A stretch of 64,000 nt of DNA from Gemmatimonadota bacterium (GCA_031127085.1 JARIEY010000001.1:30175-94174), one strand, 5' to 3'; positions 10,055 through 60,388 are shown, numbered from the stretch's first letter. The notes: a model not told the origin generated them from the sequence alone. A program made the numbers and translations.

Positions 10055-10060
10055 CGCTCG

Positions 10061-10381: not shown

Positions 10382-10444
10382 ACAGGAAAAGTAGCGGACC
10401 GGCAGCCCGATGCGCCGCCCTCCGGGGATCGCTAGTTTCGGCGG

Positions 10445-37347: not shown

Positions 37348-38757
37348 ATGAGCGTCGTGGTGCTGGTGGCCGACGGCGCCCGGCCGGATACGCTGCGCGC
37401 GGCCCTCGATTCAGGGGACCTTCCCGCCTTGGCGCGGCTGCGCGCCGAGGGCGAGCTGCACACGGTGAGTTCGGTCTTTCCGTCTGTCACCGGACCGGCG
37501 TACACGCCGTTCCTGATGGGCCTCTTTCCGGGGACGGCGGGCATACCCGGCATCCGTTGGTGGGACCGCGCGCGCACGGCCACGCACTGGCCCGACCACG
37601 CCCGCAGCTACGTGGGCATTCAAGCCCGGCACGCCGATGCCGACCTCACGGCCGCGCACCGCACGCTCTTTGAATGCGCCCCCCGCGCGCTGGCATCACT
37701 CACGCCGTTCGGCCGCGGCCTCACCCCAGCCAGTCGCCTTGGCTTCAACTGGGGCTTCGGCGCGCGTGCCGCGTGGGCGCATTTCCGAGGCGACGTACCC
37801 GGGTGGCTGTCCATCGACCGGGCGATGGGAGTGCGCGCCGCCGAGCGGATCCGCCGCGACCGTCCCGATGTGGCGTTTCTCGTGCACCCCGGCATCGACA
37901 AGACCTCCCACGCGGTGGGGCACGCGGCGCCTGCGGTGCGCGATGCCATGCGCATTGTGGACGACACGGCGGCGATGATCCGCGCCGACGCTGAGCGCGA
38001 CGGACGGTGGGAGTCGATGCACCTGTGGATCGTGAGTGACCACGGCCATTCGCCGATCACCGCCCACGACGATCTCGCGACGCTGCTCGCGTCGTGGGGA
38101 TTTGGGGTCTGCGCGCACCCGTGGACGATGGTCGGCGGTCCGGACTGCGCGGTGATGGTCAGCGGGAATGCGATGAGCCATGTGTATCTGGAACTGCACC
38201 AGCGGTCGCGACCCTATTGGCCGGAGCTGGCCGGGCGCTGGGAACGTGTCGTCGAGCGTTTGCTGGCGCGCGCCTCGGTGGATCTGCTGATGCTCCCCTA
38301 CGCACCCACCGTGTGCGAGGTGCGCGCCCGCGACGGCCGCGGACGCGCGATGGTGCGTCGTGACGGCTCACGGTTCTTATATGAGCCCATGGACTGCGGC
38401 GATCCGCTTGGGCTCGGCGGCGCGGTGGATGCGCCCACCCCCGACGCTGCCCATGACGCGTGCCGCGGCTCCGACTATCCGGATGCGCTCGTCCAGATCA
38501 TGCAGCTTGCTGCGTCACCGCGCTCCGGCGAGGTGCTGCTCAGTGCTGCGCGGGGGTGGGATTTCCGCGCGCGCTACGAGCCCATCCCCCACGTGTCGAG
38601 CCACGGCGCGCTGCACCGCGAGCATATGGACGTGCCTTTGCTGGTGAACCGCCCAACAGCGCTGGTGCCGCGGCGCACCGCCGATGTGATGCCGAGCGCG
38701 CTTCGTGCGCTGGGCCTCGCCGTCCCGGCAGGGCTCGACGGTACATCATTCGTGTAA
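37348..38757 (+). CDS. alkaline-phosphatase-superfamily protein (type I phosphodiesterase / nucleotide pyrophosphatase-like)
   Basis: Track ORF 35500..38757 is an antisense read-through, so I trimmed it to ATG 37348 (MSVVVLVADGARPD ... SVFPSVTGPAYTPF ... IVSDHGHS). Confidence 0.7.
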   Translation: MSVVVLVADGARPDTLRAALDSGDLPALARLRAEGELHTVSSVFPSVTGPAYTPFLMGLFPGTAGIPGIRWWDRARTATHWPDHARSYVGIQARHADADLTAAHRTLFECAPRALASLTPFGRGLTPASRLGFNWGFGARAAWAHFRGDVPGWLSIDRAMGVRAAERIRRDRPDVAFLVHPGIDKTSHAVGHAAPAVRDAMRIVDDTAAMIRADAERDGRWESMHLWIVSDHGHSPITAHDDLATLLASWGFGVCAHPWTMVGGPDCAVMVSGNAMSHVYLELHQRSRPYWPELAGRWERVVERLLARASVDLLMLPYAPTVCEVRARDGRGRAMVRRDGSRFLYEPMDCGDPLGLGGAVDAPTPDAAHDACRGSDYPDALVQIMQLAASPRSGEVLLSAARGWDFRARYEPIPHVSSHGALHREHMDVPLLVNRPTALVPRRTADVMPSALRALGLAVPAGLDGTSFV

Positions 38758-38796
38758 CGCGTTGGGCCCGTCGCGGGCCGCGCGGCGCCGGTACGG

Positions 38797-40086
38797 CTAC
38801 TGGGTGCCGATCTCGAGCAGTTCGTCGAGGTGCCGCGCGATGGCGATCTGCCGCGCGCGCATACGGCCCAACCGGCGCCGATGCAGGTGGCGTACGAAGA
38901 AGCGCTGCACGGCCAGCCAACTGAGGCGGCGGCGTTCGGCCACGATGGCTGCGCCGGCGGCGACGAGTGGCAGCAGGACGAACGTCGCCACGCCCCAGCG
39001 CCAGTTCAGCGCCCACGTGGCGGCCACCGAAAGGAGGACCGTCCAGATGATGCCCAGGAAGCCGACGCCGAGCACATGGTAGGTGGACACCGAGTCGGGG
39101 CCTTCGCTGTTGTACTTGGCCATCCAGCGCGCACCGCGGAGCGGCGGCCAGTAGACGAGCAGCGCCAGCGCGGCGAGCGGGATGGCCGCCAGCAGCGGAA
39201 AGCGCAGGACAATCCAGCGCAGCGCGGCGGCCGAGGTGACGTCTTCCTTGAGCGCCTGCGGCGACAGCCCCATGCGCTGGAGCATGCGTGCGTGCGCGCG
39301 CAGTTCGCGCGCAGTGTCCTGCCACTCCGCGTCGCCGCGTGAGCGGAAGCGCTGCAGCACACTGGCGGTGAGCGCAAGTCGCGAGACGGTGCTCTCGGAA
39401 TCGCGCGGCGAGCCGTGCTCGGCGGTCCATATCTGCTCGGCCACGTGCACCAGCGCCGCGTCTTCCCACGAGTCCAGGTTCAGGGTGACGCGACGCATCG
39501 CTTCGTCAATGCGCTTGGTCAACTCGCGCACGGCGAACTTTTCGTCGCTGCGCGCGGCCAGGTCGCTCCAGTCGAAGGCGTCGCCCACCACGACCCGCAC
39601 TTCGCTGCGCACGCTGTTGCGGTCGCGGAAGACGAGTCCCACCGGGACGATGGGGAAGGCCGCGCCGATGCGACGTGCCGCGCCCAGCGCGATGCGGGCC
39701 GCCCCCGTCTTGATGGGGGCCAGGCGCGATCCCGAATGACTGGTGCCTTCTGGGAAGATCCCGACGGCCGCCCCCTCGGCGAGCGCCTCGTGCACGGCGA
39801 CAAAGATGTCGCGGTTCTGCCCCAGCAGGCGCGGGTCATCCTGCGCGCGATAGACCGGGATGGAAGCCACTGCTTTGACGAGCCAGCCGATCTGCTTGTG
39901 CGTGAACAGCGTGGACTTGGCGAGGAAGCGGACTTCGCGCTGCGCGGCGACGGTGACGAAGGCCGGGTCGAGCAGGCTGTTGTTGTGGTTCGCCACCAGG
40001 AGCACCGGCCCGTCCGTCGGCACACGCGCTCCCCCCACCGTGAACCGGTAGTAGGCGCGCGTCGCGAGACGCGAGATGAAGGGCAT
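38797..40086 (-). CDS. lysophospholipid (1-acyl-sn-glycerol-3-phosphate) acyltransferase family protein with C-terminal membrane domain
   Basis: Track ORF trimmed to ATG 40086 (MPFISRLATRAYY). The track's N-terminal extension reads through the heptamer array. Motifs: LLVANHNNSLLD (HxxxxD) and FPEGTSH. Confidence 0.75.
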   Translation of the reverse strand: MPFISRLATRAYYRFTVGGARVPTDGPVLLVANHNNSLLDPAFVTVAAQREVRFLAKSTLFTHKQIGWLVKAVASIPVYRAQDDPRLLGQNRDIFVAVHEALAEGAAVGIFPEGTSHSGSRLAPIKTGAARIALGAARRIGAAFPIVPVGLVFRDRNSVRSEVRVVVGDAFDWSDLAARSDEKFAVRELTKRIDEAMRRVTLNLDSWEDAALVHVAEQIWTAEHGSPRDSESTVSRLALTASVLQRFRSRGDAEWQDTARELRAHARMLQRMGLSPQALKEDVTSAAALRWIVLRFPLLAAIPLAALALLVYWPPLRGARWMAKYNSEGPDSVSTYHVLGVGFLGIIWTVLLSVAATWALNWRWGVATFVLLPLVAAGAAIVAERRRLSWLAVQRFFVRHLHRRRLGRMRARQIAIARHLDELLEIGTQ

Positions 40087-40121
40087 GAGGCCGGGGAATC
40101 GCACGGTCAGGGGCGGGTGGA

Positions 40122-40173
40122 GATGGCGGATGGCAGATGGCAGATGGCAGATGGCAGATGGCGGACGATGGAC
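40122..40173. repeat. tandem heptamer array GATGGCR (left arm of an inverted pair)
   Basis: Units: gatggcg, gatggca x4, gatggcg (six uninterrupted units, 40122-40163), then gac and gatggac. Confidence 0.85.
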
Positions 40174-40206
40174 GTTAGGGGTCGCGTGCGGGGTGAGGAA
40201 GTCCCT

Positions 40207-40284
40207 CTGCCCTCCGCCATCTGCCCTCCGCCATCTGCCCTCCGCCATCCGCCATCCGCCATCCGTCCCCTGCCATCCACCGCC
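40207..40284. repeat. tandem array of the complementary unit (CTGCCCTCCGCCAT x3, CCGCCAT x2, degenerate units); right arm of the inverted pair
   Basis: I read this directly. The 14-mers are at 40207, 40221 and 40235, and the 7-mers at 40249 and 40256, followed by ccgtccc ctgccat ccaccgcc. Its reverse complement is again GATGGCR-type. Confidence 0.85.
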
Positions 40285-40307
40285 TCGCGCCCCCATCTTT
40301 CAGTTGT

Positions 40308-40550
40308 ATGCCGTCGCTCCTTCTCGCCCTCACCCTGCGCGCGCGGGTCAATCCAGCGGTCGCGGCGGACCTGTTGCGTGTGGCCTGGCGGTATCGGCGG
40401 CGGCGGTGGTGGGCGCGGGTGCCGTTTCTTCCGTGGCCTGACCGCACGTACCTGCGCTGGCGGCTGTACACCGCCTATGGCAGCGAGGACGCCGTTCCCC
40501 CTGTTGCCGACATCCTGCGCTACGCGCGCTGGACGCGGCATCACCCGTGA
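40308..40550 (+). CDS. hypothetical small Arg/Trp-rich protein
   Basis: 80 aa with GC-rich third positions. Its stop overlaps the queG GTG start (GTGA). I recognise no family. Confidence 0.45.
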   Translation: MPSLLLALTLRARVNPAVAADLLRVAWRYRRRRWWARVPFLPWPDRTYLRWRLYTAYGSEDAVPPVADILRYARWTRHHP

Positions 40551-41587
40551 GCGGCGCGCTCCCCACGGGTTTTTCGCACCGCCTCAAGACGCAGGCCTAC
40601 GCGGCCGGGTTCGACCTCGCGGGCATTGCTGCGCTGGGTGTGCCGGAGACGGCAGCGCGGTTCGATGACTGGCTGACGCAGGGGTACCACGGCGAAATGG
40701 CGTACCTCGCGCGCGGCGCCGAGTTGCGCCGCGACGCGCGGCGCCCGGTGGCGGGGATGATCAGCGCACTTGTCGTCGGGCTCAACTACGGCGGCACGCA
40801 GCCCAGTGGACCGGTGGCGCGTTACGCACGCTTTGCCGACTACCACCGAGTGATGTGGGACAAGCTCGACGCGCTGCTCGCGTGGGTGCGTACGGAGCTC
40901 GGCGACGTGCGCGGCCGGTCATTCGTCGACAGCGGCCCCGTGCTGGAGCGCGACCTCGCGCAGCGCGCGGGGCTTGGCTGGTTCGGCAAGAACACGTTGC
41001 TCATCAACCCGCGCGTCGGGTCGTTCTTTTTTCTGGGCGCGCTCTTTCTCGACGTCGCGCTCGAACCCGACGACGCCTTCGCGACCGACCACTGTGGCAC
41101 GTGCACGCGCTGTCTGGATGCCTGCCCCACGCAGGCGTTCGTGGCGCCGCGCGTCCTCGACGCCCGCCGGTGCATCTCGTATTTGACTATCGAGTTAAAA
41201 GGGGACCATACGCCGGAGCAGGCGGCGATGGTGGGCGAGCATCTGTTTGGGTGTGATGTGTGTCAGGAGGTGTGCCCGTGGAACGCGAAGTTCTCGCGGG
41301 CGGCGACGGAACCGGCGTTTTCTCCTTTGGCGCGGCTTGCAACGTCCGACGCCCGGGAGCTGGCGCGCGCCTTCCTGGCCATGACCCCGGCCGAGTTCAC
41401 GGCGGAACTCAAGCACACTCCCCTGTCGCGCGCCAAGCTGTCCGGGCTCCAGCGCAACGCCGGCGCTGTGCTAGGAAAGGCGGACCCTGCCGCCGATGTG
41501 ACAGCGCCTTCCGAGGACTTGTCCGACTCCGACGCCTCTGAGCGCTCGGCTACTGATGTCCAGACCCTAGCTGGAGACCCACAATGA
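40547..41587 (+). CDS. queG: epoxyqueuosine reductase
   Basis: 346 aa. Motifs: YHGEMAYL, GLGWFGKNTLLI, and the two 4Fe-4S motifs CGTCTRCLDACP and CDVCQEVCPWN. Confidence 0.85.
   Translation: MSGALPTGFSHRLKTQAYAAGFDLAGIAALGVPETAARFDDWLTQGYHGEMAYLARGAELRRDARRPVAGMISALVVGLNYGGTQPSGPVARYARFADYHRVMWDKLDALLAWVRTELGDVRGRSFVDSGPVLERDLAQRAGLGWFGKNTLLINPRVGSFFFLGALFLDVALEPDDAFATDHCGTCTRCLDACPTQAFVAPRVLDARRCISYLTIELKGDHTPEQAAMVGEHLFGCDVCQEVCPWNAKFSRAATEPAFSPLARLATSDARELARAFLAMTPAEFTAELKHTPLSRAKLSGLQRNAGAVLGKADPAADVTAPSEDLSDSDASERSATDVQTLAGDPQ
41264..41319 (+). repeat. 56-nt direct repeat, copy 1 (inside queG)
   Basis: caggaggtgtgcccgtggaacgcgaagttctcgcggg cg gcgacggaaccggcgtt. It matches 46652-46707 at 54 of 56 positions. 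Confidence 0.9.
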
Positions 41588-42042
41588 ACATGCGACTGCC
41601 GATCCTCGGACTCGTGCTTTCTCTCGCCGGCGCGAACGGCGTCGTTGCCCAGACTTCCGCAGTGGGACACGAACTCACGCAGCTTTCGAAAGACAAATGG
41701 CAGTGGATGGCGGACAAGGACGTGGGCAAACTCGAACCGCTGTTCCATGACAGATCGAAGTTTGTGCACATGGGAGGTACCTGGGGGAAGGCCGAGGAAC
41801 TCGACATCATCAAGTCCGGCCGAATCTGGTACAAGCAGACCGATGTCCACGCGGCAGTCTCGGAAGTGTTCGAGAATACTGCCATTGTATGGAGTCGCAT
41901 CACGCTTCATGCGATGCTCGGGAGCAACGAGGTGGTGACGGAGTTCACGGTCACCGAGGTCTTCCAGAGGCAGGGTACGGCCTGGAAGATCCTGGATCTG
42001 ACCTTCAGCAGTGTTCGGGACAACCACCGGATTCGGGAGTAG
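41584..42042 (+). CDS. NTF2-like (DUF4440/SnoaL-type) secreted protein
   Basis: 152 aa. The ATG overlaps the queG stop (ATGA). The signal peptide is MNMRLPILGLVLSLAGANGVVAQ. The gene is visibly AT-richer than its surroundings. Confidence 0.6.
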   Translation: MNMRLPILGLVLSLAGANGVVAQTSAVGHELTQLSKDKWQWMADKDVGKLEPLFHDRSKFVHMGGTWGKAEELDIIKSGRIWYKQTDVHAAVSEVFENTAIVWSRITLHAMLGSNEVVTEFTVTEVFQRQGTAWKILDLTFSSVRDNHRIRE

Positions 42043-42060
42043 GCCGCGCCGGGAAATCCG

Positions 42061-42552
42061 CTACTCGTCCCTCGTCATCTCCACCAACGTGCGCCGGAAC
42101 CCCGCGCGCACGCACAGGCGCTGCGCCGCCACGTTTCCCTCGGCCGTCGAGAGCACCAACTGCCGGGCGCCGCGATCGCGGAGCGCCGCGATGGTCTCCT
42201 CGAACAGCAGGCTGCCGACGCCAGCGCGTCGGTGCGCCGGATCGACGACGATGTCGTGCAGCACGCCCGCCGGGCCGCGGAGCGTCATGTAGTCTATCCC
42301 TTCGACGGCCGCATAGGCGTAGCCTACGACCCTGCCCTCGCGCTCCGCGACCATTACGAGGATATCCGGCTCCGCAAGCTGGCTAAGGAGGAAGTTCCCG
42401 TACCCGTCCTCGGTGTGCGGCGTCACCGGGATGAACCGCTTCGGATCAAGATCGTGGTGCGTTTGCACCAGCAACGCGCCAAGGCGGCCGAGCGCCTCGA
42501 CGTCGTCTGGCGTGGCACGGCGCAGCGTCGCCGCTGGATGTTCGGCACTCAC
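42061..42552 (-). CDS. GNAT-family N-acetyltransferase
   Basis: Trimmed to the GTG at 42550-42552, which forms a GTGA overlap with the upstream stop. HRRAGVGSLLFEE is the acetyl-CoA-binding Q/RxxGxG/A motif. Confidence 0.75.
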   Translation of the reverse strand: MSAEHPAATLRRATPDDVEALGRLGALLVQTHHDLDPKRFIPVTPHTEDGYGNFLLSQLAEPDILVMVAEREGRVVGYAYAAVEGIDYMTLRGPAGVLHDIVVDPAHRRAGVGSLLFEETIAALRDRGARQLVLSTAEGNVAAQRLCVRAGFRRTLVEMTRDE

Positions 42553-43250
42553 GGAATCCTCGGTGCTACGCGGTACCGCAGCCAAACCACGCCGCCCTCG
42601 CGTCGCTCCACCGCCTCAAGGTCGAGATGACACGGTGTCGCCGCGCCATCGAGGTCGAAGAGCGTCGGCATGCCAACGCGCCCATCCGCAACGGGCGCCA
42701 CCAGCACGCTGAGTTCGTCAATGAGCCCGGCGCGCAAAAAGCCGCCGTTGATGCCGCCACCGCCTTCGAGCATCACGGTGCGCACTCCAAAGCGCACGCC
42801 GATCTTCTCAAGCGTCAGCGCCAGGTCGACGTCGCGCGCGCCAGCCAGCAGGTACGAGACCCCGCGCGCCCGAAGGAACGCGAGGTATTCGTCGGAGACC
42901 CGCTCCGTCAGGATCGCGACGACGTGATCGCCGTCGATCTCCTTCGATTTCCACGCGAGGCGACCGCGCGGGTCGATGGCGAAGGCGTACGTCGCGTGAT
43001 CGCCCGGCGCCGCGAAGTCCTCGCGCGGCGCGCCGTTGTACTCCCGGGCGACGTCGTCCTCGGCGCGCGTGGCGCCCGCCATTGACTCCATCGTGATGCG
43101 GCCGCACATCCACGCGTCGGCCTTGTAGCTCGCATGCACCTGCTCGTATTGCGCGCGCACCGACGCGGCCGAGGAAGCCGGCCATCCGTTCACGACGATG
43201 CGCCCGTCGACCGACGTGGCCATGTGGCAGATCACTCGGGGGCGTGTCAT
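42549..43250 (-). CDS. dihydrofolate-reductase-like (RibD C-terminal domain) family protein
   Basis: 233 aa. Motifs: MATSVDGRI and MLEGGGGINGGFLRAGLIDELSVLVAPV. Confidence 0.7.
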   Translation of the reverse strand: MTRPRVICHMATSVDGRIVVNGWPASSAASVRAQYEQVHASYKADAWMCGRITMESMAGATRAEDDVAREYNGAPREDFAAPGDHATYAFAIDPRGRLAWKSKEIDGDHVVAILTERVSDEYLAFLRARGVSYLLAGARDVDLALTLEKIGVRFGVRTVMLEGGGGINGGFLRAGLIDELSVLVAPVADGRVGMPTLFDLDGAATPCHLDLEAVERREGGVVWLRYRVAPRIP

Positions 43251-43447
43251 CGCTCGATCATCTTCTGCGCTCTCTCAGAGTAACGGTGTCCGTGCGCGGG
43301 AATCTGGGAGGCCGCCTCGTTGAGCGCGAGAAGGTCGTCGGGCCACAGGTCGCCATCGACCGCGCCGAAACCGAAGCTCAGCCCCATGCAACCGAGGCCG
43401 AGCGCCGACACCTCACGCCCGCCGTTTCCCAGCACGCGCTGCTTCAC
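43247..43447 (-). pseudogene. internally deleted aldo/keto reductase remnant (66 codons)
   Basis: From the GTG at 43445-43447 it reads VKQRVLGNGGREVSALGLGCMGLSFGFG, which is an AKR N-terminus. This is fused directly to DDLLALNEAASQIPAHGHRYSERAQKMIER, an AKR C-terminal tail (compare [20 protein letters not shown] in the neighbouring AKR). Its stop overlaps the next ATG (ATGA). Confidence 0.6.
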
Positions 43448-43472
43448 AATCCGTCTCCGTCGGACGGAACTC

Positions 43473-44618
<1,146 letters not shown>

Positions 44619-44672
44619 GACAACTCCTGGCGGGTGGAACGGTGAAGGGGCGCGCGTGAGGTTACTGGTGTT

Positions 44673-45563
44673 TCATGCTTCCGGAATGGGAACGCCGTAG
44701 GGACCGTCGAGCGTAATGCTGTCGGGCTCCGGACCGCCGCGCACGCCCGTTTCGAGTGCATCGATCGCGCTCAACTGCGCCGGCGTGAGCGCGAAGTCGA
44801 AGACGTTGAAGTTCGCGCTGATGCGACCTGGCTTGACCGACTTCGGAATAGCCGAGCGTCCTTGCTGCAGATGCCAGCGCAGCATCACCTGCGCGGTCGT
44901 CTTGCCGTATTTGCGAGCGATCGCGAGCAGGGTAGGATCGTCGAACGCGCTCTTCGCGCTCGGGCGGTACGTCGTGATGCCGCCGATCGGCGACCACGCC
45001 TGTGTCGCGATCCCGTGCGTCGCGTGCATGCGCTGCAGCGTGAGTTGCTGGAAGTAGGGATGCACCTGAATCTGGTTGACCGACGGCACAACCTTCGCGA
45101 CCGCCAGGAGTCGTTCGAGGTGGACGGGCATGAAGTTGCTCACCCCGATCGCACGCACGCGGCCGTCGGCGAGCAGCCTTTCGAGCGCGCGATACGCATC
45201 GCGCGTGCGGTCGGATGCCGTCGGAAGCGGCTGGTGGAGGAGCAGCAGGTCCAGTTGGTCGACACCGAGCTTGGCGACACTCTTGTCGAACGCGTGCAGC
45301 GTGGCGTCGTAGCCGAAGTCGCTGATCCAGACTTTCGTTTCGATGAACAGTTCTTCGCGGGCAATGCCGGAGCGACGAATGCCCTCGCCGACCTCGCGCT
45401 CGTTGAAATACACGGCGGCGGTGTCGATCAGCCGATAGCCGGCGGCAATCGCGCTTTCGACGGCGCCGACGGTCTCGGACGGCGGACTCTGGAAGACGCC
45501 GAAGCCGAGGGCCGGCAGCTGGACGCCATTGTTCAGCGCGATGGTCGGGCGCGTCGCAGTCAT
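44673..45563 (-). CDS. aldo/keto reductase (2,5-diketo-D-gluconate reductase-like)
   Basis: Trimmed to ATG 45563 (MTATRPTIALNNGVQLPALGFGVFQ). Motifs: IDTAAVY and LLLHQP. Confidence 0.8.
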   Translation of the reverse strand: MTATRPTIALNNGVQLPALGFGVFQSPPSETVGAVESAIAAGYRLIDTAAVYFNEREVGEGIRRSGIAREELFIETKVWISDFGYDATLHAFDKSVAKLGVDQLDLLLLHQPLPTASDRTRDAYRALERLLADGRVRAIGVSNFMPVHLERLLAVAKVVPSVNQIQVHPYFQQLTLQRMHATHGIATQAWSPIGGITTYRPSAKSAFDDPTLLAIARKYGKTTAQVMLRWHLQQGRSAIPKSVKPGRISANFNVFDFALTPAQLSAIDALETGVRGGPEPDSITLDGPYGVPIPEA

Positions 45564-45659
45564 CGGTGCTCCGTCGCTTGAGGTACGCTGTGAATCTGCC
45601 CGTGACCGCTCGGTTGATCTACTTGCCATCACTTACAGCGTTGGTCACTATTCCTTCCA

Positions 45660-46595
45660 ATGGCAGACGAACTCGATGGCATGGCGACCTTCGTTGCCAT
45701 CGCCGAAGCGAAGGGATTCCGCGCCGCCGGCGAGCGGCTCGGCGTGAGTCACTCGGCGGTGAGCCAGACGCTGCGCCGGCTGGAGACGCGGCTCGGTGTC
45801 GCGCTCGTGCGGCGCACCACGCGCAGTGTGCACCTCACCGAGGCTGGCGTGCGACTGTATGCCTCGGTGCGCCCCGCGATGGACGAGGTGCGGGCCGCCG
45901 TCGCGGTCGTCGGTGAACTCGGCGACCAGCCGCGCGGGACGCTGCGCGTTCACACGTCGACTCCGGCCCTGGCGATGGTAGGCGAATCACTGATCGCCGA
46001 GTTCCTCGCCGAGCACCCGCACGTGCAACTCGACCTTGTGGTCAGCGATGTGCCGGTGGATATCGTGGCCGGCGGCTACGACGCTGGCATTCAGCTTGGC
46101 GAGGTGATCGACAAAGACATGATTGCGGTGCGCATGACCGGCGACCTGCAACTCGCTGTGGTCGGCGCCCCGTCGTACTTCGCGCGCCATCCGAAGCCGA
46201 AGCATCCACGCGACCTCATGGATCACACCTGCCTCAACTGGCACCCGACGGCCGAGGCGCCGCCGTATCGCTGGGAGTTCACGGAGAATGGGCGAGAGTT
46301 CAGCGTCTCCGTGAAGGCGCGCGTGCTCTCCACCGACTCGAGCCTCAACCGACGCCTTGCCATCGCAGGACTGGGGCTCACGTTGTCGTTCGACGGCCAT
46401 GTGCGCGAGGCCGTCGAACGAGGAGAGCTGGTTCGCGTGCTCGAGAAATACTGCGAACCGTTCCCAGGCTACTACTTGTATTACCCGCAGCGGCGCCACG
46501 CGTCTCGTGCGCTGCAGGCGCTCACGGCGCACCTGCGGCGGTGGCAGCAATCGGGTCGGCAACGGAAGCGGGGCCGCTCGCAGGCAGTCAGCTGA
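45660..46595 (+). CDS. LysR-family transcriptional regulator
   Basis: 311 aa with the N-terminal HTH FVAIAEAKGFRAAGERLGVSHSAVSQTLRRLE. It is divergent from the AKR operon. Confidence 0.85.
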   Translation: MADELDGMATFVAIAEAKGFRAAGERLGVSHSAVSQTLRRLETRLGVALVRRTTRSVHLTEAGVRLYASVRPAMDEVRAAVAVVGELGDQPRGTLRVHTSTPALAMVGESLIAEFLAEHPHVQLDLVVSDVPVDIVAGGYDAGIQLGEVIDKDMIAVRMTGDLQLAVVGAPSYFARHPKPKHPRDLMDHTCLNWHPTAEAPPYRWEFTENGREFSVSVKARVLSTDSSLNRRLAIAGLGLTLSFDGHVREAVERGELVRVLEKYCEPFPGYYLYYPQRRHASRALQALTAHLRRWQQSGRQRKRGRSQAVS

Positions 46596-46651
46596 TCGTC
46601 CTGCTTCCGGTAGAGAGCGGAATCGCAAAATGGTTCGACCGGCACACCTCC

Positions 46652-46707
46652 CAGGAGGTGTGCCCGTGGAACGCGAAGTTCTCGCGGGACGCGACGGAAC
46701 CGGCGTT
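46652..46707 (+). repeat. 56-nt direct repeat, copy 2
   Basis: It matches 41264-41319 at 54 of 56 positions. Similarity stops abruptly at the 5' edge (ggcacacctc versus gtgatgtgtgt). Confidence 0.9.
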
Positions 46708-46867
46708 CGCGCCGCGCGCTGAGCTGGTGGCACCCGATCTCGCCGCGTTCGCGGCGATGGATGACGGCGAGTTCAAGCGGCGGTTCGCCGATACACCGCT
46801 GGCGCGGGCCAAGCGCGTCGGGCTCGCGCGCAACGCCGCGGCCGCTCCAGAAAACCGTCCGTCCTGA
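46652..46867 (+). pseudogene. displaced queG 3' end (C-terminal 71 codons only)
   Basis: It encodes QEVCPWNAKFSRDATEPAFAPRAELVAPDLAAFAAMDDGEFKRRFADTPLARAKRVGLARNAAAAPENRPS. This parallels the C-terminus of the intact queG (QEVCPWNAKFSRAATEPAFSPLARL ... LAMTPAEFTAELKHTPLSRAKLSGLQRNAGAVLG). There is no QueG-like sequence upstream of it. Confidence 0.8.
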
Positions 46868-47029
46868 CGACCCTCAGGACGAAGGATGCCGCGGACTCTC
46901 CTTCCGCCCTCTCAATTGCGGACAAAGCGCCCCTCTCGTTCATTGCGGGAGGCGGACACTTTGCACACTATAGCAGTGTACCTGCCCCCCACCCGTTTCA
47001 CCATTCTCTCCTCGTCACCCCGAAGGCCT

Positions 47030-48115
47030 ATGCCCATGCGTCCCGTACCGCTTACCAAGACGAGGCGGCCGCTCCGGAGCCTCGTGCTCTTGGCGCTCGC
47101 CGTTGTCATCTCCGGCTGCGCCATCAAGGACCTCACCAGCGTTCCCGAGTGGGACCTGCGGTTCAACATCCCGACACAGAGCACCACGATTTCGGTCGGC
47201 ACCATGCTGCCGAGCGGTGTCAGCATCAAGTCAGACTCCACGGCGTTTCTCGTGAGCGTGAGCGGCACGAGCTTCAACCGCGTGCTGTCGACCGTCTGCG
47301 CCACCTGCGTACCGCTCAACGGGCTGGTCGTCCCGAAGCCGGCCTTCTCCTTCACCGCCAACAACACGACGGCCCTCCCCTCCGACGTCGCTTCCGCGAC
47401 GCTCGCGAGCGGAACCATCGCCGTGACGGTGCAGAATGGGATGACGTTTGACCCCATCAGCATCACGGGTGCCGCGACCCAGGGCCACCTGCTGATCGTG
47501 GTCACCGACGCCGCCAATCGGCAGCTCGCGCGCGATTCCGTGAACGGCGCGACCACGACGCTCGCCGCCGGATCGACGCTGAACCGCACGCTGACCCTCG
47601 CCGCCGGCCCGATCACCGGCCCGCTGACGGTCACCGCCACGTTGAACTCGCCGGCCGGCGGCAACGTGACAATGGATGTGAGCCGTTCCGTCACCGTCAC
47701 CGGCACGCCGCAGAACATCGCCGTTTCGGGCGCGGCGGTGACGGTGTCGAACAAGAACATCAACACGTCCAACATGTCGTTTGACCTCTCCGGACTGGAC
47801 GCAAGCATCGCCGACCGCATGGCCGGCGCCATCGTCCAACTGGCGATCACCAACCCGTTCGCCGTGACGGGCAACTTGACCGTCCGGCTGGTGGCGAGCG
47901 GCGTGAACATCACCAAGACGGTGGCACTCGCCACCGGCTCGAGTTCGCCCACGATCAGCCTGACCGCTGCCGAGGCCCGCTCCATCGCTGGAAAGAATGT
48001 CTCGGTGTCCATCACCGGTCCGGTGTCGGCGAGTGCGCCGATCACCGTGGCGCCGCGTGACAAGGTGACGGTCAACACGCGCATTGAGGCCACGATCAAC
48101 GTGGGGGGGAACTGA
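47030..48115 (+). CDS. Ser/Thr/Val/Asn-rich lipoprotein, function unknown
   Basis: Trimmed to ATG 47030. The lipobox is LLALAVVISGC. The composition suggests all-beta structure, with two similar modules (approximately aa 90-200 and 230-340). Confidence 0.65.
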   Translation: MPMRPVPLTKTRRPLRSLVLLALAVVISGCAIKDLTSVPEWDLRFNIPTQSTTISVGTMLPSGVSIKSDSTAFLVSVSGTSFNRVLSTVCATCVPLNGLVVPKPAFSFTANNTTALPSDVASATLASGTIAVTVQNGMTFDPISITGAATQGHLLIVVTDAANRQLARDSVNGATTTLAAGSTLNRTLTLAAGPITGPLTVTATLNSPAGGNVTMDVSRSVTVTGTPQNIAVSGAAVTVSNKNINTSNMSFDLSGLDASIADRMAGAIVQLAITNPFAVTGNLTVRLVASGVNITKTVALATGSSSPTISLTAAEARSIAGKNVSVSITGPVSASAPITVAPRDKVTVNTRIEATINVGGN

Positions 48116-49401
48116 TGACCCGCGCAAATAAAATGGGGCGTTTCGCCCTCGGCGCTCTCGTGCTGCTGATGAACGCCACGGCCCTGCAGGCACAGCAGGC
48201 CAACCCCAGCGTGGTGGCGTTTGGCATGGGGAACAACTACACCGCGGCGGCTCGCGGCTATGAGACGATTGGATGGAACCCCGCGATGCTCGCGATTGGC
48301 GCGCAGCCGAAGTTCTCGGTCGGTGCGCTGATCGGTGGGGCAAACGGCGGGCTGGCGCCTGTCGACGTGCAGGACATTGCCGACTATTCCGGCGTGACCA
48401 TTCCGCGCAGCGTCCGGCAGGGATGGGTGAATGACCTCCGCAACAGCTCCAAGTCGGAGACTGGCGCGCTCGACGGTGGCGTGACCTTCCTCGCGCTGAG
48501 CTGGGGGCACATGGCCGCACAGGTCAGCGCATCGGCCGGCGCCAACATGAACCTGAACGCCGACGCGCTCGAGACGATGCTCCTGGGCAACGCCGACGCC
48601 GTCGCCTCCAACCGGACGCTCCGTCCGTCGGGCGGCCTCACGGCCTCGGCATTCATCACGTCCGCGGTCTCGTGGTCGAAGGCGCTCAACTGGAAGCCGA
48701 TGGGCGCGAAGGACGAGAGTTTCGCGCTCGGCGTGACGGGCAAATGGGTCCTCGGCGCGGCCAACGTCCGGGTGCAGGATGCCGGGTCGACGATCACGAA
48801 GGACGCCATTACGGCGCGATTCCCGGCGGTCTTCTCCAGCGGAACCGACGCAGGGTCTGGCATTGGAATGGATGTGGGCGCGGCGTGGCACGGTGGCAAC
48901 ACCACCGTCGGTCTGACCGTGATGAATCTCTTCAACTCGTTCGCGTGGGACGGCGCCGGGTTTGAGTGCATTCCGATGACGATCGACATCGATGTCAATC
49001 GCACCAACACGTCCACCGAGAAGGCGGCGTGCTCAGGATCCACGCAAGTTCAGGTGGATGCGGCGACGGCCATGAAGTTCATGCCGTCGATCCGCGCCGG
49101 CGCGGCGTGGACCGGCCTGACCAAGTGGACGCTCACGGCGGACGTACAGTCCCAGTTGGGCGACGAGGCCGAGACGATCGTCCTCGGACCGAAGACGAGC
49201 GTCGGCGTCGGCGCTGAGTATCGCGGCCTCGCGATGCTGCCGCTGCGCGGCGGCTTCTCCGTGATCGAAGGCGGCACGCAGATGGCTGGCGGCGCGGGCC
49301 TTCGCTTCGGACGCTACGAGTTTAACGTCGGTATGCAGCTGCGGAACGTGGATGGGATGAGCAGCACGAACGTGATGCTCGGACTCCTCTCCGTGCGGTA
49401 G
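48115..49401 (+). CDS. putative outer-membrane beta-barrel protein (PorV/FadL/TraF-like by motif only)
   Basis: The ATG shares 1 nt with the upstream TGA. The signal peptide is MGRFALGALVLLMNATALQAQQ. It has GMGNNYTAAARGYETIGWNPAML near the N-terminus and an alternating Gly/aromatic beta-strand pattern. The family assignment is tentative. Confidence 0.55.
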   Translation: MTRANKMGRFALGALVLLMNATALQAQQANPSVVAFGMGNNYTAAARGYETIGWNPAMLAIGAQPKFSVGALIGGANGGLAPVDVQDIADYSGVTIPRSVRQGWVNDLRNSSKSETGALDGGVTFLALSWGHMAAQVSASAGANMNLNADALETMLLGNADAVASNRTLRPSGGLTASAFITSAVSWSKALNWKPMGAKDESFALGVTGKWVLGAANVRVQDAGSTITKDAITARFPAVFSSGTDAGSGIGMDVGAAWHGGNTTVGLTVMNLFNSFAWDGAGFECIPMTIDIDVNRTNTSTEKAACSGSTQVQVDAATAMKFMPSIRAGAAWTGLTKWTLTADVQSQLGDEAETIVLGPKTSVGVGAEYRGLAMLPLRGGFSVIEGGTQMAGGAGLRFGRYEFNVGMQLRNVDGMSSTNVMLGLLSVR

Positions 49402-49415
49402 TCGCGCAGGTACGA

Positions 49416-49456
49416 AAAGAAACGGGGCCGCTCAGTGAGCGGTCCCGTTTTTTTTG
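49416..49456. terminator. bidirectional rho-independent terminator
   Basis: aaaagaAACGGGGCCGCTCAgTGAGCGGTCCCGTTtttttt. It has a 14-bp stem with one G-U pair, a T-run on the plus strand and an A-run upstream. It lies between convergent genes. Confidence 0.8.
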
Positions 49457-49485
49457 TGCCGTGCGATCCGCGGATGCCGCGATGC

Positions 49486-50538
49486 CTACTCCCCGAGCGT
49501 CTTGCTGTCGATCACGAAGCGGTACTTCACGTCGCTCTTCAGCATCCGCTCGTAGGCGGCATTGATCTGCTGCGCCGGAATCAACTCGATGTCCGAGACA
49601 ATGCCGCGCGCGGCGCAGAAGTCGAGCATTTCTTGCGTCTCGGCAATGCCGCCGATCAGCGAACCTGCGATCGCGCGGCGCTTGAAGACGAGCGGCATGA
49701 TGCTCGGAGACGGGTGCGGTTCTGACGGCGCGCCCACGAGCACCAGAGTGCCGTCGCGCTTCAGCAGCATCGTGAACGCATCGAGCACGTGGCTGGCCGA
49801 GACCGTGTTGATGATCAGGTCAAAGGTCCCCGCGTGCGCCGCCATTTCGTCGGCGTGACGCGACACCACCACCTCGTCGGCCCCCAGCGCCTTGGCCTCC
49901 GCGCGCTTGCTCTCGCTCGAGGTGAACGCCACGGTCTGCGCCCCCATCGCGTGCGCCAGCTTTACCCCCATGTGCCCCAGTCCGCCGATGCCCACAATCC
50001 CCACTTTCTTGCCCGGCCCGGCCTGCCAGTGGCGGAGCGGTGAGTACGTGGTGATGCCGGCGCACAGCAGCGGCGCCACCGCGGCCAACTGCTCAGGGGC
50101 GTGAGAAATGCGCAGCACGAAGTCGTCCTTCACCACGATGCGCTGCGAGTAACCGCCGAGCGTGTGTCCGGGCGCGTCGGGCGTCGGGCCATTGTACGTG
50201 CCCACCATGCCCGACTCGCAGTACTGCTCCAGACCCTCGGCGCACGACCCGCACTGGCCACAACTGTCCACCAAGCATCCCACCCCCACGGTGTCGCCAA
50301 CCGCGAAACGGGTGACGGCTGCGCCGATCGCGGACACGTGCCCTACGATTTCGTGCCCTGGAACGCACGGGTACTGCGTCCCTGGCCACTCGGAGCGCAC
50401 GGTGTGCAGGTCGGAGTGGCAAATGCCACAGTAGGCGATCTCAATCTGAACATCGTGTGCGCCGGGCGCGCGGCGCGAGATGTCGAGTGGTCCAAGTGGC
50501 TGGTCGGCGGCGTGGGCGCCGTAGGCTTTGATGGTCAT
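49486..50538 (-). CDS. zinc-dependent NAD(P) alcohol dehydrogenase (cinnamyl-alcohol/YahK-like)
   Basis: Trimmed to ATG 50538, preceded by GAGGAG. Motifs: CGICHSDLH, GHEIVGHV, the structural zinc site CGQCGSCAEGLEQYC, and GIVGIGGLGH. Confidence 0.85.
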   Translation of the reverse strand: MTIKAYGAHAADQPLGPLDISRRAPGAHDVQIEIAYCGICHSDLHTVRSEWPGTQYPCVPGHEIVGHVSAIGAAVTRFAVGDTVGVGCLVDSCGQCGSCAEGLEQYCESGMVGTYNGPTPDAPGHTLGGYSQRIVVKDDFVLRISHAPEQLAAVAPLLCAGITTYSPLRHWQAGPGKKVGIVGIGGLGHMGVKLAHAMGAQTVAFTSSESKRAEAKALGADEVVVSRHADEMAAHAGTFDLIINTVSASHVLDAFTMLLKRDGTLVLVGAPSEPHPSPSIMPLVFKRRAIAGSLIGGIAETQEMLDFCAARGIVSDIELIPAQQINAAYERMLKSDVKYRFVIDSKTLGE

Positions 50539-50617
50539 TCGTGTCTCCTCGAGTAGAGCTGAAGCGTGGCGATGGCGTGGCGCCGGCTCTTTCTCGGCAC
50601 GTGTCTCGTGCCGCCAG

Positions 50618-52906
50618 TCAGAAGCCAAACCGCACGCCAGCGTTCGCAGTGAATCCCGTGAGTTCCGTCCACGCATCGGTGGTCCAGCGACCGCCGCGCC
50701 CTCGCGCCGGCAGAAGCAACGGGTCGATCCGTGTTTGACGAACGTTCGTGAGGTTCTCGAGGTTCACGAACAGCCGCGCGGCGCCGGCGCGTGTTGGAAA
50801 GACGCGCTCGCCGAGCACCCCCAACACCACATACGGCCGGCTTTCCGTCCGAAACGGATTGTCGTCCAGCGTCTGCCGTCCCGTGTAGTACAACTCCACG
50901 CCGAGACGGCTCTTTCCCTCACGCTCGACCGCAGCGACCACGCCCGCCGTGTGCCTGGGCGTCAGCGGGACGGCGCGGCGGTCGCACGCGCCCCTCGCGG
51001 CACGCTCGTCGCAGGAGGTGGCACTGACGAACGTATAGCTTCCGGTGACACGCAGCGTCGGTGACTCCTCGTCCCCGGCGGCAAGCCCAAGTTCGCGAGT
51101 GAATCGGCCGAGCAACTCCATACCCCACGTGCGCGTCGGCTGTGGGGCGTTGGCCAACCGCAGACGCGCCGCGCCCTGCGGCGTAGTCCCCAACGCATCT
51201 ACCACCTGCACGGGGTGCTCCACACGCGACGCGAAGAGCGTGGCATTGGCATCGAGGTGCGTCGCCCCCAACCGCACCGGACCGCCAACGTCGACGGAAC
51301 CGCCGAGCGCACGTTCCGCAACGAGTTGTGCGAGCGGCGCCAACGGCGACAGGCCCGTGGTCTCCGTCAGGTCAGTAAACGGTGAGGGCGCGAACTCGCC
51401 GGTGCCGAGGGACAGTCGGCTCGACCACCCCGCCAGGCGGCCATCCGCGCGTCGCAGGAGCACGGAAAGTCGCGGGTTCACCACCGTGCCGTACTCGCTA
51501 TGCGCATCGGCGCGCACGCTGGTCGAGAGCGAGATCCAGGGGGCAGGATCAACATCGAACTGCCCGAAGACCGCGGGCACGGTGAAGGTGTAGTCGAACC
51601 CCGCCACGTCGGTGGCGCGGTACCCGTCCTGCTGCAACGCGACGCCGCCCACGTAGCTCGCGCGCCCGCGGGGCACCGTGATGGCCGCCTCGCCGAACCA
51701 CGTCTGGTGACGGTCGGCCTCGCGCACGCGCCCAAACTGATGACGATGCTGCTGTGCCATCGCCGACCCGCGCAGCGTCACGATGGCACCGTGCAGCGCG
51801 CGCGCCGAGTCTTGCACGACCCAACGGGCCAGCGCCCCCAGGTCGACACGTTGCGTCTGGAGTCCTTCCGCGAACGGCGCCCCGTCCGGCGCCATTCGGC
51901 CGGGGAGTGTCCCACCCTGCCGGTCTTCACCGGAGTAGCCCGCGGTGAGAAAGGCGGACCGTGTGCCGTCCGCGAAGTAGAACCGTGGGCGAACCACCGC
52001 GCGTTCGTAGCCTGGCAGGTCGGTCCAGCCATCGGCGTCGAGATCGCGCTGCGCCTGACGATGCCCGCCCGCCAGCAGCGTGTACCCCCAGCGCGAGGTC
52101 AGCGGCGCACTGAGGAACGCCACCGCATCGGTACCACCGCGCGTCGTCTGGTTGAGCAGGACGGTCTGCTTCGCATCGGTCCCGGGACGGCGGGCAATGA
52201 GGTTCACGACTCCTCCCAGCGCCGAACTCCCGTACAGCGCGGAGGCCGTCCCCTTGATGACCTCGACCCGCCCGAGGTCCACGGGCGGGATTTGCAGTAA
52301 CCCGAGCCCACCCGCCTGCCCGCCGTACAGCGGCAGTCCGTCCACGAGCAGCAGCGAATACCGGCCGGCGAGCCCCTGAATGCGAATGCTCGCCCCACCC
52401 AGCGACGGACTCGTCGTTTGCACGCGCAGTCCCGACGTCTCATTGAGCATCATCGCGATGTCGCCCGGCGTCATCGCCACCTTCTCGGCGATCTCCTCTT
52501 CGTCAATCACCTCCACCCGCAACGGCACGTCCTCGACGCGACGTTCGCTGCGCGTGGCGCTCACGACCACCGCCTCCACCTGTGCGATCTGCGCCGTCAG
52601 CGAGAGGAGCACCGTTGTGTCGGCGCCCGCGCGCAACGTCAGCCGCAGGGAGTCCGGCCGATAGCCGAGCTTTGACACCACGAGCGAGTGCGTGCCGGCT
52701 GACAGCCGCAGGCTGGCTTCGCCACGCACATCGGTTTGTGCGCCCGCCGCGCCGGACCGCACGATGGCGGCCTCCACGGGCATCTGGTCGCTCGTCACTC
52801 GCACGCTGACGCGGGCAGCCCCTGGCGACTGCTGCGCCCCCAGTTGGCCGACGCTGGTCAGTAACGCCACGCTCCCACACAGCGCCGGCAGGGCGCGGAA
52901 ACGCAT
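50618..52906 (-). CDS. TonB-dependent receptor with N-terminal carboxypeptidase-regulatory-like domain
   Basis: Trimmed to ATG 52906 (MRFRALPALCGSVALLTSVGQLGAQQ). The plug region is SGLRVQTTSPSLGGASIRIQGLAGRYSLLLVDGLP. It has a long barrel and the terminal GVRFGF. Confidence 0.85.
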   Translation of the reverse strand: MRFRALPALCGSVALLTSVGQLGAQQSPGAARVSVRVTSDQMPVEAAIVRSGAAGAQTDVRGEASLRLSAGTHSLVVSKLGYRPDSLRLTLRAGADTTVLLSLTAQIAQVEAVVVSATRSERRVEDVPLRVEVIDEEEIAEKVAMTPGDIAMMLNETSGLRVQTTSPSLGGASIRIQGLAGRYSLLLVDGLPLYGGQAGGLGLLQIPPVDLGRVEVIKGTASALYGSSALGGVVNLIARRPGTDAKQTVLLNQTTRGGTDAVAFLSAPLTSRWGYTLLAGGHRQAQRDLDADGWTDLPGYERAVVRPRFYFADGTRSAFLTAGYSGEDRQGGTLPGRMAPDGAPFAEGLQTQRVDLGALARWVVQDSARALHGAIVTLRGSAMAQQHRHQFGRVREADRHQTWFGEAAITVPRGRASYVGGVALQQDGYRATDVAGFDYTFTVPAVFGQFDVDPAPWISLSTSVRADAHSEYGTVVNPRLSVLLRRADGRLAGWSSRLSLGTGEFAPSPFTDLTETTGLSPLAPLAQLVAERALGGSVDVGGPVRLGATHLDANATLFASRVEHPVQVVDALGTTPQGAARLRLANAPQPTRTWGMELLGRFTRELGLAAGDEESPTLRVTGSYTFVSATSCDERAARGACDRRAVPLTPRHTAGVVAAVEREGKSRLGVELYYTGRQTLDDNPFRTESRPYVVLGVLGERVFPTRAGAARLFVNLENLTNVRQTRIDPLLLPARGRGGRWTTDAWTELTGFTANAGVRFGF

Positions 52907-53254
52907 GTACGAGGCCAGCGCGGAGCAGGCTGTGGCGAGACGACAAGGCATCAGCGAAATGCTCGGCGGGAGAGAGGGGCACGCACCATCGCGCGCGAGG
53001 CGTGCGTGAACGATGCGTCGCACTGACCTCCCCCGGTCAAGCCCCACCGGAAACTCGGCTCCGGCCGCGCTGCGCGTTACCTATTTACATGCCCCCTCGC
53101 TTGCCAAGCGCACGCCCCTTCGCGACCTTGCTTCGAGGGCCAATCGTGCCGATGCCGGCGCGTTCTGGACTCAGCGCGCGGCGGCGCCGCGCCATCCGAT
53201 GCGTATTGCCCCCCGATATGACTCTCGTCCCGCGCCGCGGCGCAGGGAGGTGCG

Positions 53255-58699: not shown

Positions 58700-59278
58700 T
58701 CATCCCCGCATCGGCTTCAGCGCCACCGTCCATCGGTGCAGCTCATCGAGCATCGCCACCGCCTTTTTGGGGTGCCCATCGGCGGCCACGAACTCCCCGG
58801 TCGACTTGTCGATGTGCTGGGCCACCTGCTGGATCATCACCGTCTCGACGAGCGGCACGACTTTGAACGTGGTGAGCACCTGCTTGGTCATCTGCACGCT
58901 GCGCAGCGCGCCGGATTCGCCGCCGTAGCTGGCGAAAGCCGCCGGCTTGTACGTCCACTCGTGGTAGATGACCTGCAGCGCATTGAGGAGCGCGGCCGGC
59001 ATCGAGAAGTCGTATTCCGGCAGCACGAACACAAACGCGTCGGCGCGACGCACCGAGGCGCTCCACCGCTGCGTCGGCTCGTGCGCATACTGCCCGAGAC
59101 GCGGGTGCGCGGCCTCGTCGAGAATGGGGAGGTTGAAGTCGGCGAGGTCCACCAACTCCACGGTGAAGCGGCCGTGCGCGCGCGCCTGCGCCTCCATCCA
59201 GCGCGCCACCGCTGGACCCACGCGCCCGGGGCGCGTCGAACAAATGATTACCTGCAGGACGAGCGGTTGATCGGTCAT
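58700..59278 (-). CDS. NADPH-dependent FMN reductase family protein
   Basis: 192 aa. Motifs: [12 protein letters not shown] and the LPEYDFSMP region. The ATG overlaps the upstream stop (ATGA). Confidence 0.75.
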
Positions 59279-60306: not shown

Positions 60307-60388
60307 CGGACTGTCCTTTTATCTTTGTACTGAGATATATCCCGATCGCGCCGGCGGCACAACCCACCGCGTCGTCGTCCGCGTAGCT

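Follow-up and report, generated by a model that had tools for sequence, protein, structure and literature searches.

A queG-linked gene cassette in a Gemmatimonadota bacterium and related cassette arrays in Gemmatimonadaceae

In the 64,000-nucleotide window analyzed here, which derives from a Gemmatimonadota bacterium (GCA_031127085.1 JARIEY010000001.1:30175-94174), the 3′ end of the queG gene is occupied by a 5.4-kb interval (41264-46707) bounded by direct repeats. The original prediction, made from the sequence of the window, had taken this interval for an insertion into queG. We found that the same layout, a queG body and tail followed by repeats of cargo, a conserved motif named M and a further queG tail, recurs at more than 100 junctions in Gemmatimonadaceae genomes and metagenomes. 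Small queG-linked cassettes without a recombinase of their own form a family that is widespread in Gemmatimonadaceae and apparently undescribed; no account of queG as an attachment site, or of such arrays, was found in the open-access literature. We consider it an even proposition that the window interval is one cassette of a family that docks at the Fe-S-motif core of queG and is exchanged mainly by homologous recombination.

The two copies of the direct repeat (Table 1) are identical at 54 of 56 positions, as predicted, with a spacing of 5,388 nt, and they form the longest two-copy repeat within positions 38000-50000. Both encode the peptide QEVCPWNAKFSR. The prediction that each copy is followed by a different but homologous QueG C-terminus was confirmed, the two tails (41264-41587 and 46652-46867) sharing 62% protein identity (E = 2e-23). 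The downstream tail is also a true QueG C-terminus by comparison with other genomes, being 73-82% identical to the functional C-termini of intact relative QueG proteins (for example, 47/57 with P0017). The Pfam families QueG_DUF1730 and Fer4_16 were found in the body of the gene, and the remnant is homologous to the HEAT-like C-terminal segment of QueG. QueG-like sequence was looked for 5′ of the second tail copy and none was found, in agreement with the description of this tail as an orphaned 3′ end; it is not decaying, however, and belongs to a class of intact silent tails.

The QueG homologs that are 70-83% identical to that of the window split cleanly into two classes, with A tails resembling 41320-41587 and B tails resembling 46708-46867. 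With the A-type tails of relatives, the present tail of the window queG shares 64-88% identity, and with B-type tails ~50%; the displaced tail matches an orphan tail in locus L173 at 84% and the functional tail of L083 at 73.5%. The body of the window queG is 83-86% identical to the bodies of relatives with either tail type. On a tree of the N-terminal bodies, the A and B classes are thoroughly interspersed, and three pairs of proteins (P0003/P0038, P0008/P0040, and P0018/P0067) combine bodies of 96-97% identity with tails of only 46-47%. The A-type tail of the window came with the cassette and now forms the functional 3′ end of queG, and the displaced B-type tail is presumably the one that this gene used before the insertion. 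In the core, A-type relatives mostly read HKYSA or RKFSA (P0002-P0013 compared), and the window and P0003 read AKFSR, the B-type form. Core copy 1 is therefore probably native sequence, and the core is itself a mosaic in which the switch point between A and B sequence varies among genomes. Coding constraint accounts for part of the 56-nt identity, since this stretch is also strongly conserved from genome to genome.

The loci of QueG relatives were fetched with one genome per species, and the closest were metagenome-assembled genomes (MAGs) of Gemmatimonadaceae. A second QueG tail was present 0.8-4.2 kb downstream of queG in five MAG loci (L007, L018, L020, L022, and L023). The same layout together with the conserved motif was found in these loci and in L082, L163, L166, and L173; all nine were found by QueG or orphan-tail protein homology alone and not by a DNA motif pattern. 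A metagenome scan with a 28-nt pattern from M yielded 77 loci, ~70 of which have a QueG tail at the same offset, the end of the motif; in the rest, the cores are truncated or deleted or the contig end is reached. Two to four M-plus-tail units in series were present in 19 of the 77 loci, with four in L099; relatives thus carry up to four small stacked cassettes with unrelated cargo, and the window carries one. The cassettes measure 0.7-5.4 kb and duplicate 210-330 nt of the gene tail. Bounded cargo spans 0.4-5 kb and is unrelated between loci; its 156 candidate open reading frames (ORFs) fall into 102 clusters.

Most of the displaced tails (~64 of 76 distinct ones) keep the full-length QueG C-terminal frame with the conserved motifs of the family, unlike long-abandoned pseudogenes, and their intactness fits periodic rejoining to queG or a fast turnover of cassettes. 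Orphan B-type tails also occur as ORFs in the protein collection, with at least 28 at 67-85% identity to that of the window. The closest, in L173, is part of an array of two cassettes, and the distal flank of this array shows synteny with positions 58700-62145 of the window.

Alignment of the sequences upstream of the second tails revealed M as a conserved non-QueG, non-coding stretch of ~76 nt directly 5′ of the displaced tails. The original prediction had missed this motif beside the remnant. An example consensus of M reads GGAATC.CAAAAYGGTT...CCG.CACAYCTCC and ends exactly at the start of the core CAGGAGGTGTG; across ~65 distinct junctions, conservation is position-specific over the ~76 nt 5′ of the core. 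M is present once in the 64-kb window, where its profile matches at 46589-46653. Core positions 3-13 recur, exactly reverse-complemented, as the last 11 nt of M, and L082 has 16 bp of such perfect symmetry. In an alignment of 44 junctions, 80% of the cells of the dyad pair, compared to 25-46% when the partner is slid; no covariation was seen.

In 1.74 Mb of sequence, all 106 matches to the 5′ part of M abut the queG core, which ruled out a link of M to other genes. No Rfam match, fold, or covariation beyond that of shuffled sequences was found that would mark M as a structured RNA or an attC-like hairpin: RNAalifold gave −3.1 kcal/mol with four trivial pairs, and pair counts equaled those of the shuffled controls. 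M is therefore best described as a sequence-level site. A derivation of M from decayed queG was rejected as well, the profile giving 0 matches against 92 native queG upstream segments (150 nt) and 3 against codon-shuffled controls; similarities of M to queG upstream sequence that had been noted by eye failed this profile test. Neither is M a coding leader of the displaced tail, as it has no conserved in-frame start and carries substitutions at all codon positions, and a phage origin was not supported, the M pattern having no match in IMG/VR viral contigs. Since M lacks an Rfam match, a fold, and a queG origin and always abuts the core, it represents a distinct cis element tied to the queG site. 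It is also under selection.

Empty sites, as the predicted insertion implies, were found in relatives. In L083/L084, an intact queG with a B-type tail is present without M and without a second tail, and in L001 and L004 queG is followed directly by an ortholog of the receptor gene at 50618-53047 of the window (75% and 63% over ~745 amino acids). L172 and the occupied locus L082 are collinear through the body and then through the core, the B-type tail, and the next gene, and the only difference is a 1.7-kb block that comprises A-type tail, cargo, and M. The emptiness of L172 is confined to that junction, as a second B-type tail (12257-12496) is located ~3.6-3.9 kb downstream. No recognizable M was detected in front of this second tail, which suggests that a deletion can remove M and leave the tail in place. 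The lipoprotein gene at 47030, which had been expected to adjoin the empty site, was not its neighbor in relatives, where L001 and L004 show the receptor gene ortholog in this place. An empty site for the window's own strain, sought via this lipoprotein gene, was not found; lipoprotein homologs of 58-62% identity lie away from queG, and an 85% homolog is on a 1.5-kb contig. Together with the homology of the remnant, the empty sites support an insertion into queG at the Fe-S-motif sequence by which the gene was rebuilt and the old 3′ end displaced.

Cassettes also differ in their combinations. Counting the window, M and a B-type remnant are present in four of the six close A-type relatives with enough flanking sequence, and their cargos differ: AAA_14/DUF4143 in L082, a TonB receptor in L163, AbiEi/AbiEii in L166, and the window's own cluster. 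No remnant was found within 10 kb in L081 and L162. The cassette c3, with 97-100% identical proteins, is located behind different upstream cassettes in L099/L116/L124/L145 and in L100/L144, and the pairs L089/L108, L137/L141, and L138/L155 share a left cassette and have different right neighbors.

Breakpoints, counted from the first base of the core, were read from pairs of loci that agree to one side of a junction but not to the other. Switch points between loci were located at −16, +16, +20, +46/47, and +93, and those in near-identical gene pairs at about +3, +16, +21, +37-45, and +48. The window queG keeps the B-type AKFSR and becomes A-type only after +56, at the right edge of the repeat; the 56-nt repeat is therefore not a fixed att duplication, its copies being merely identical over this stretch. 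Elsewhere the near-identical stretch covers ~20 nt (L082) or 218 nt at 80% (L020), so that length and identity vary among loci. With breakpoints from −16 to +93, a single fixed crossover in a short att core was not observed.

A tyrosine or serine recombinase was not detected by Pfam in 30 large cargo ORFs, 20 distal array-flank ORFs, and 10 further window genes, and a crude regular-expression search for recombinase motifs over the window and the array loci gave no hit. By Pfam gene content, the window islet lacks an integrase, as had been predicted, and none was present among the other window genes checked. In the cassettes and at the far end of the arrays, only sporadic transposases of insertion sequence (IS) types IS5, IS3, IS630, and IS91 were seen. 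An IS91-family Y2 (rolling-circle) transposase in L108 (1204-2553) is the only non-DDE recombination enzyme in the cargo; as it occurs at 2 loci, it is too rare to account for the family. The cassettes also do not qualify as an IS200/IS605- or IS91-type element, with a Y2 transposase in one cargo cluster only and no conserved fold in M.

These observations can be accommodated as follows. Each cassette consists of a replacement QueG C-terminal segment, cargo, and the 76-nt M, the cargo of the window being the DUF4440 gene and a LysR-controlled reductase/acetyltransferase cluster. By one crossover with the chromosomal core, a cassette in free and presumably circular form (M, core, tail, cargo) would produce the order body, core, new tail, cargo, M, core, old tail. 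Incoming linear DNA would lead to this order as well, through two crossovers for which the queG body and a tail serve as homology arms. Repeated insertion would stack cassettes, and recombination between repeated cores or tails would remove or reshuffle them, with the direct repeats releasing circles. Because the breakpoints are scattered over ~100 nt, the exchange is probably mainly homologous (RecA-type) within the ~56-nt core, which is kept nearly identical across the family by protein and codon constraints. Among the options named in the original prediction, the third, recombination through the conserved Fe-S-motif sequence, is thus the one best supported. As homologous recombination does not explain M, a factor encoded elsewhere is probably involved. 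Selection on M and its mirroring of the core make it most likely that this factor binds there, to M and the dyad. The factor would promote or direct the exchange, either as a site-specific recombinase whose footprints are blurred by gene conversion or as a nuclease or nickase.

Several points weigh against this explanation. Acting alone, homologous recombination leaves unexplained the position-by-position conservation of M, the mirror of the core at its end together with the same boundary in every junction, and the route by which new cargo enters the interval between tail and M. The break at −16 (L138/L155) lies within a conserved block of just 15 nt, which is short for RecA. No terminal overlap that would indicate a circular or free cassette was present among the 77 metagenome contigs. 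Beyond the window islet, the Pfam scans for recombinases were confined to 30 large cargo ORFs, 20 array-flank ORFs, and ten further window genes, and all array-bearing loci are MAG or metagenome contigs. As the metagenome loci were selected by the 28-nt pattern inside M, conservation within this pattern is partly ascertainment; the blocks outside it (CC.GT and GAGCGGGATC) and the nine loci found without a DNA pattern are free of this effect.

A more far-reaching reading, which we put forward tentatively, is that of an integron-like gene-capture platform of the Gemmatimonadaceae inside a housekeeping gene, in which cassettes tagged by M and a QueG tail are handled by an M-binding recombinase or nuclease encoded elsewhere. 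This enzyme would insert, excise, and reorder cassettes at the queG core, and the stacked intact tails would record successive captures.

The ~76 nt of conserved positions, the dyad of 11-16 bp centered on CA at the M/core junction, and the left limit of queG homology shared by all junctions would be expected if a site-specific tyrosine or serine recombinase were encoded elsewhere. For this enzyme, M and the dyad core would be equivalent to an attP with accessory arm sites, and attB would be the queG core. The scattered breakpoints would then be secondary and result from later gene conversion among the repeated cores and tails, with the cassettes being served in trans like integron cassettes or the pseudo-SCC elements of staphylococci discussed below. 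Cassettes as small as 0.4 kb, which are unable to encode their own enzyme, fit this possibility, as do the −16 break inside its 15-nt block and the CDIC-encoding queG genes, in which the native sequence left of the core (GACATCTGC) is partly symmetric with GGAGGTGTG. We nevertheless regard it as rather doubtful: no recombinase gene was found among the array ORFs scanned or the window genes checked, the left half-site of the window queG (GATGTGTGT) is unlike the M arm, and in three independent cases the initial 15-47 nt of the core go with M on their left and not with the tail, so that the crossover was not at the dyad center.

Breakpoints that flank the dyad to the left and right (−16 to +93) are also what conversion tracts predict, and the dyad symmetry of the junction and the lack of a recombinase in the scanned ORFs are consistent with nuclease-triggered gene conversion or homing, in which an endonuclease or nickase encoded elsewhere cuts near the dyad and repair copies cassettes in, with variable tracts. 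This explanation appears improbable to us. It rests wholly on inference, no nuclease candidate having been found, and the occupied allele keeps an intact native body-to-core junction and would be unprotected from cutting.

No mobility at all would be needed if the queG 3′ end had been duplicated just once, long ago, in a Gemmatimonadaceae ancestor and then inherited vertically, with only local gain and loss of genes between the tails. All M copies seem to share one origin, and in the clade closest to the window the A-type tail and M with the B-type remnant flank different cargos, as such a history would allow. Tail type and cassette content should then follow the species phylogeny, and the data point the other way, with tail types interspersed among bodies that are 96-97% identical, and arrays of up to four units, identical cassettes behind different neighbors, empty sites in close relatives, and intact displaced tails speak against it likewise. 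We consider this explanation very unlikely and already largely refuted. Finally, although all array loci come from metagenome assemblies, a joining of queG strain variants by the assembler has a negligible probability, as the repeat is just 56 nt and imperfect, M is a unique non-queG sequence that cannot arise by joining variants, and the architecture, in which kilobases of coding cargo separate the repeats, recurs in assemblies from NCBI, JGI, ENA, and Logan that differ in sample and assembler.

Among known systems, staphylococcal cassette chromosome (SCC) and pseudo-SCC elements at the 3′ end of rlmH (orfX) in staphylococci resemble the queG cassettes in that both insert into the 3′ end of an RNA-modification gene that is kept, stack in tandem, consist of units bounded by a repeat of the target sequence, and in many cases lack a recombinase. 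SCC movement depends on Ccr large serine recombinases, which are carried by some elements, and the repeats measure ~15-18 bp; many pseudo-SCC units depend on a recombinase supplied in trans. In contrast, no recombinase was found with the queG cassettes at more than 100 junctions examined, the whole 210-330-nt tail is duplicated, every unit bears the 76-nt motif, and crossovers are not fixed. The queG cassettes are not members of the SCC group, as their target is queG and not rlmH and no Resolvase or Recombinase domain was present in the scanned ORFs.

With integrons and clusters of attC sites lacking an integrase (CALINs), the queG arrays share small cassettes with mostly unrelated cargo, a conserved end site, the lack of a cassette-borne recombinase, and a first cassette that may use an upstream promoter. 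In both, distal cassettes are shared and proximal ones differ, which fits insertion at a fixed proximal point. Unlike in integrons, however, there is no intI beside the queG site, the upstream neighbors being an 80-amino-acid ORF and an acyltransferase gene that are kept with or without an array; M is not attC-like and lacks a conserved hairpin or covariation (RNAalifold, shuffled controls); and docking occurs inside a coding region, so that each cassette must complete the gene. Breakpoints are scattered.

Islands such as Salmonella genomic island 1 (SGI1, at trmE), the dusA islands, and mobilizable genomic islands (MGIs, at prfC and yicC) are 15-50 kb in size and encode their own tyrosine integrase and excisionase. 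The queG cassettes resemble them in their Campbell-type layout, in which the gene is rebuilt, the core duplicated, and the original end displaced. Tandem accretion also occurs in integrative islands at such gene 3′ ends, according to two reports (PMC8409611, PMC2297512). Unlike those islands, the queG cassettes measure 0.7-5.4 kb and no integrase was found. Of the features of a Campbell-type island, the flanking repeats, the rebuilt target gene, and the empty sites are present, whereas neither an own integrase in the ORFs scanned nor a single fixed crossover was found.

In the minimal mobile elements of Neisseria and in the pilS-to-pilE system, variable content is exchanged by RecA-type recombination in conserved flanks. 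The silent copies of Neisseria and the queG tails are alike as promoterless partial copies kept intact downstream of an expressed gene. The queG cassettes differ in having a conserved cassette-end motif, and whereas the Neisseria silent copies vary a protein, the queG tails seem only to keep queG whole for unrelated cargo.

The cargo families recognized by Pfam across the loci include Ser/Thr and histidine kinases, LuxR, MarR, and LysR regulators, NorB, ABC exporters, peptidases, arginine deiminase, a glycosyltransferase, AbiEi/AbiEii, DUF2442, DUF6036 with a helix-turn-helix (HTH) protein, and Schlafen/AlbA_2, besides scattered IS5, IS3, IS630, and IS91 transposases. Large Ser/Thr kinases are a recurrent cargo (L007, L086, and L087) and contain TPR, PD40, or AAA_16 domains; such a kinase is located downstream of the tail in L140 (7542-9812), and similar kinases lie just past the arrays in L007 and L022. 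Toxin-antitoxin or abortive-infection modules recur as AbiEi/AbiEii (L166), DUF2442 (L022), and DUF6036 with an HTH protein (L173). A cassette in L018 carries ribosomal protein S21 and cold-shock genes that recur in the array flank beyond the displaced tail; the two copies (7589-8579 and 9524-10529) are 88-93% identical, which hints at a capture of queG-flanking genes into cassettes.

For the window islet, the predicted gene content was largely recovered, with an ATGA-coupled DUF4440/NTF2-like gene, GNAT and RibD_C genes, two aldo/keto reductase genes, and a LysR gene (Table 1). The proposed aldo/keto reductase remnant at 43247-43564 remained unconfirmed, as it had no Pfam match and aligned with the neighboring aldo/keto reductase in BLASTP only with E = 0.069. 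The DUF4440 gene is AT-richer than its surroundings, as predicted (GC content 0.58 versus 0.66-0.72). It may be co-transcribed with queG, the first cargo gene then being expressed from the queG promoter. The original prediction had proposed a search for relatives in which queG is followed by an NTF2-like (DUF4440) gene, and this arrangement was seen in no relative locus examined. In the metagenome locus L103, a LysR protein 61% identical to that of the window is encoded in the same place beside M.

Table 1. Coordinates of the queG locus, its cassette and flanking features in the window
Feature	Position	Strand	Evidence or remark
queG, whole gene	40547-41587	+	Pfam; stop overlaps DUF4440 gene start as ATGA
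queG body: DUF1730 and first 4Fe-4S motif, up to core	40547..41263	+	Fixed anchor of cassette site
Core copy 1 (QEVCPWNAKFSRAATEPAF), left copy of 56-nt repeat	41264..41319	+	B-type AKFSR signature
A-type replacement QueG C-terminus	41320..41587	+	Present 3′ end of queG
Secreted DUF4440/SnoaL-like (NTF2-fold) protein	41584..42042	+	ATG overlaps queG stop (ATGA)
GNAT acetyltransferase	42061..42585	-	Pfam
RibD_C-like reductase	42549..43250	-	Pfam
Aldo/keto reductase with N-terminal extension	43473..44618	-	Pfam
Aldo/keto reductase, divergent from LysR gene	44673..45632	-	Pfam
LysR-type regulator	45660..46595	+	Pfam
M, conserved non-coding cassette-end motif; contains GGAATCGCAAAATGGTTCGACCGGCACACCTCC at 46619-46651	46576..46651	+	Detectable from 46589
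M/core dyad GGCACACCTCC-CA-GGAGGTGTGCC, perfect 11-bp arms	46641..46664	.	Read from sequence
Core copy 2, right copy of 56-nt repeat	46652..46707	+	Repeat search
Displaced B-type QueG C-terminus	46708..46867	+	Frame intact, silent
TonB/Plug-type receptor gene, far edge of variable region	50618..53047	-	L001 ortholog has Plug domain

Upstream of the cassette site, synteny is kept in relatives in the order deoxyhypusine synthase-like, lysine-decarboxylase-like, in some a phosphodiesterase, acyltransferase, 80-amino-acid ORF, and queG, and the content downstream of queG is different in every relative. Compared to L001/L004, the window has two extra blocks, the cassette and 47030-50676, which is located between the B-type tail and the receptor gene and contains genes for the lipoprotein, a TraF_2/DUF5723-like outer-membrane protein, and a Zn-dependent alcohol dehydrogenase. 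As this second block is extra as well, variability is not confined to the cassette, and the whole interval between queG and the receptor gene acts as a hotspot of variation. The pair of lipoprotein and outer-membrane protein genes adjoins fabF in another genome (L167). The Arg/Trp-rich 80-amino-acid ORF (40308-40550) overlaps the queG start, belongs to no Pfam family, and is kept 5′ of queG (52-88% identity) in nearly all Gemmatimonadaceae loci, with or without arrays. In the gap between the acyltransferase gene and this ORF (40120-40286), two inverted short tandem repeat arrays of (GATGGCA)n and complementary CCGCCATCTGCCCT units form a long imperfect palindrome, which gave false matches to miRNA precursors in Rfam and inflates the acyltransferase ORF to 499 amino acids compared to 429-435 in relatives.

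If the proposed reading is true, a poorly studied phylum of soil and freshwater would gather and trade small sets of genes by a route peculiar to it. It would provide a natural example of a conserved coding sequence serving as portable homology for gene exchange, with the docking point in an essential-looking coding motif, and M would be a defined cis element for seeking a new recombination factor. For genome annotation, the cassette family would account for many short orphan "epoxyqueuosine reductase" ORFs and for the division of QueG in these genomes into two classes that differ in length and tail.

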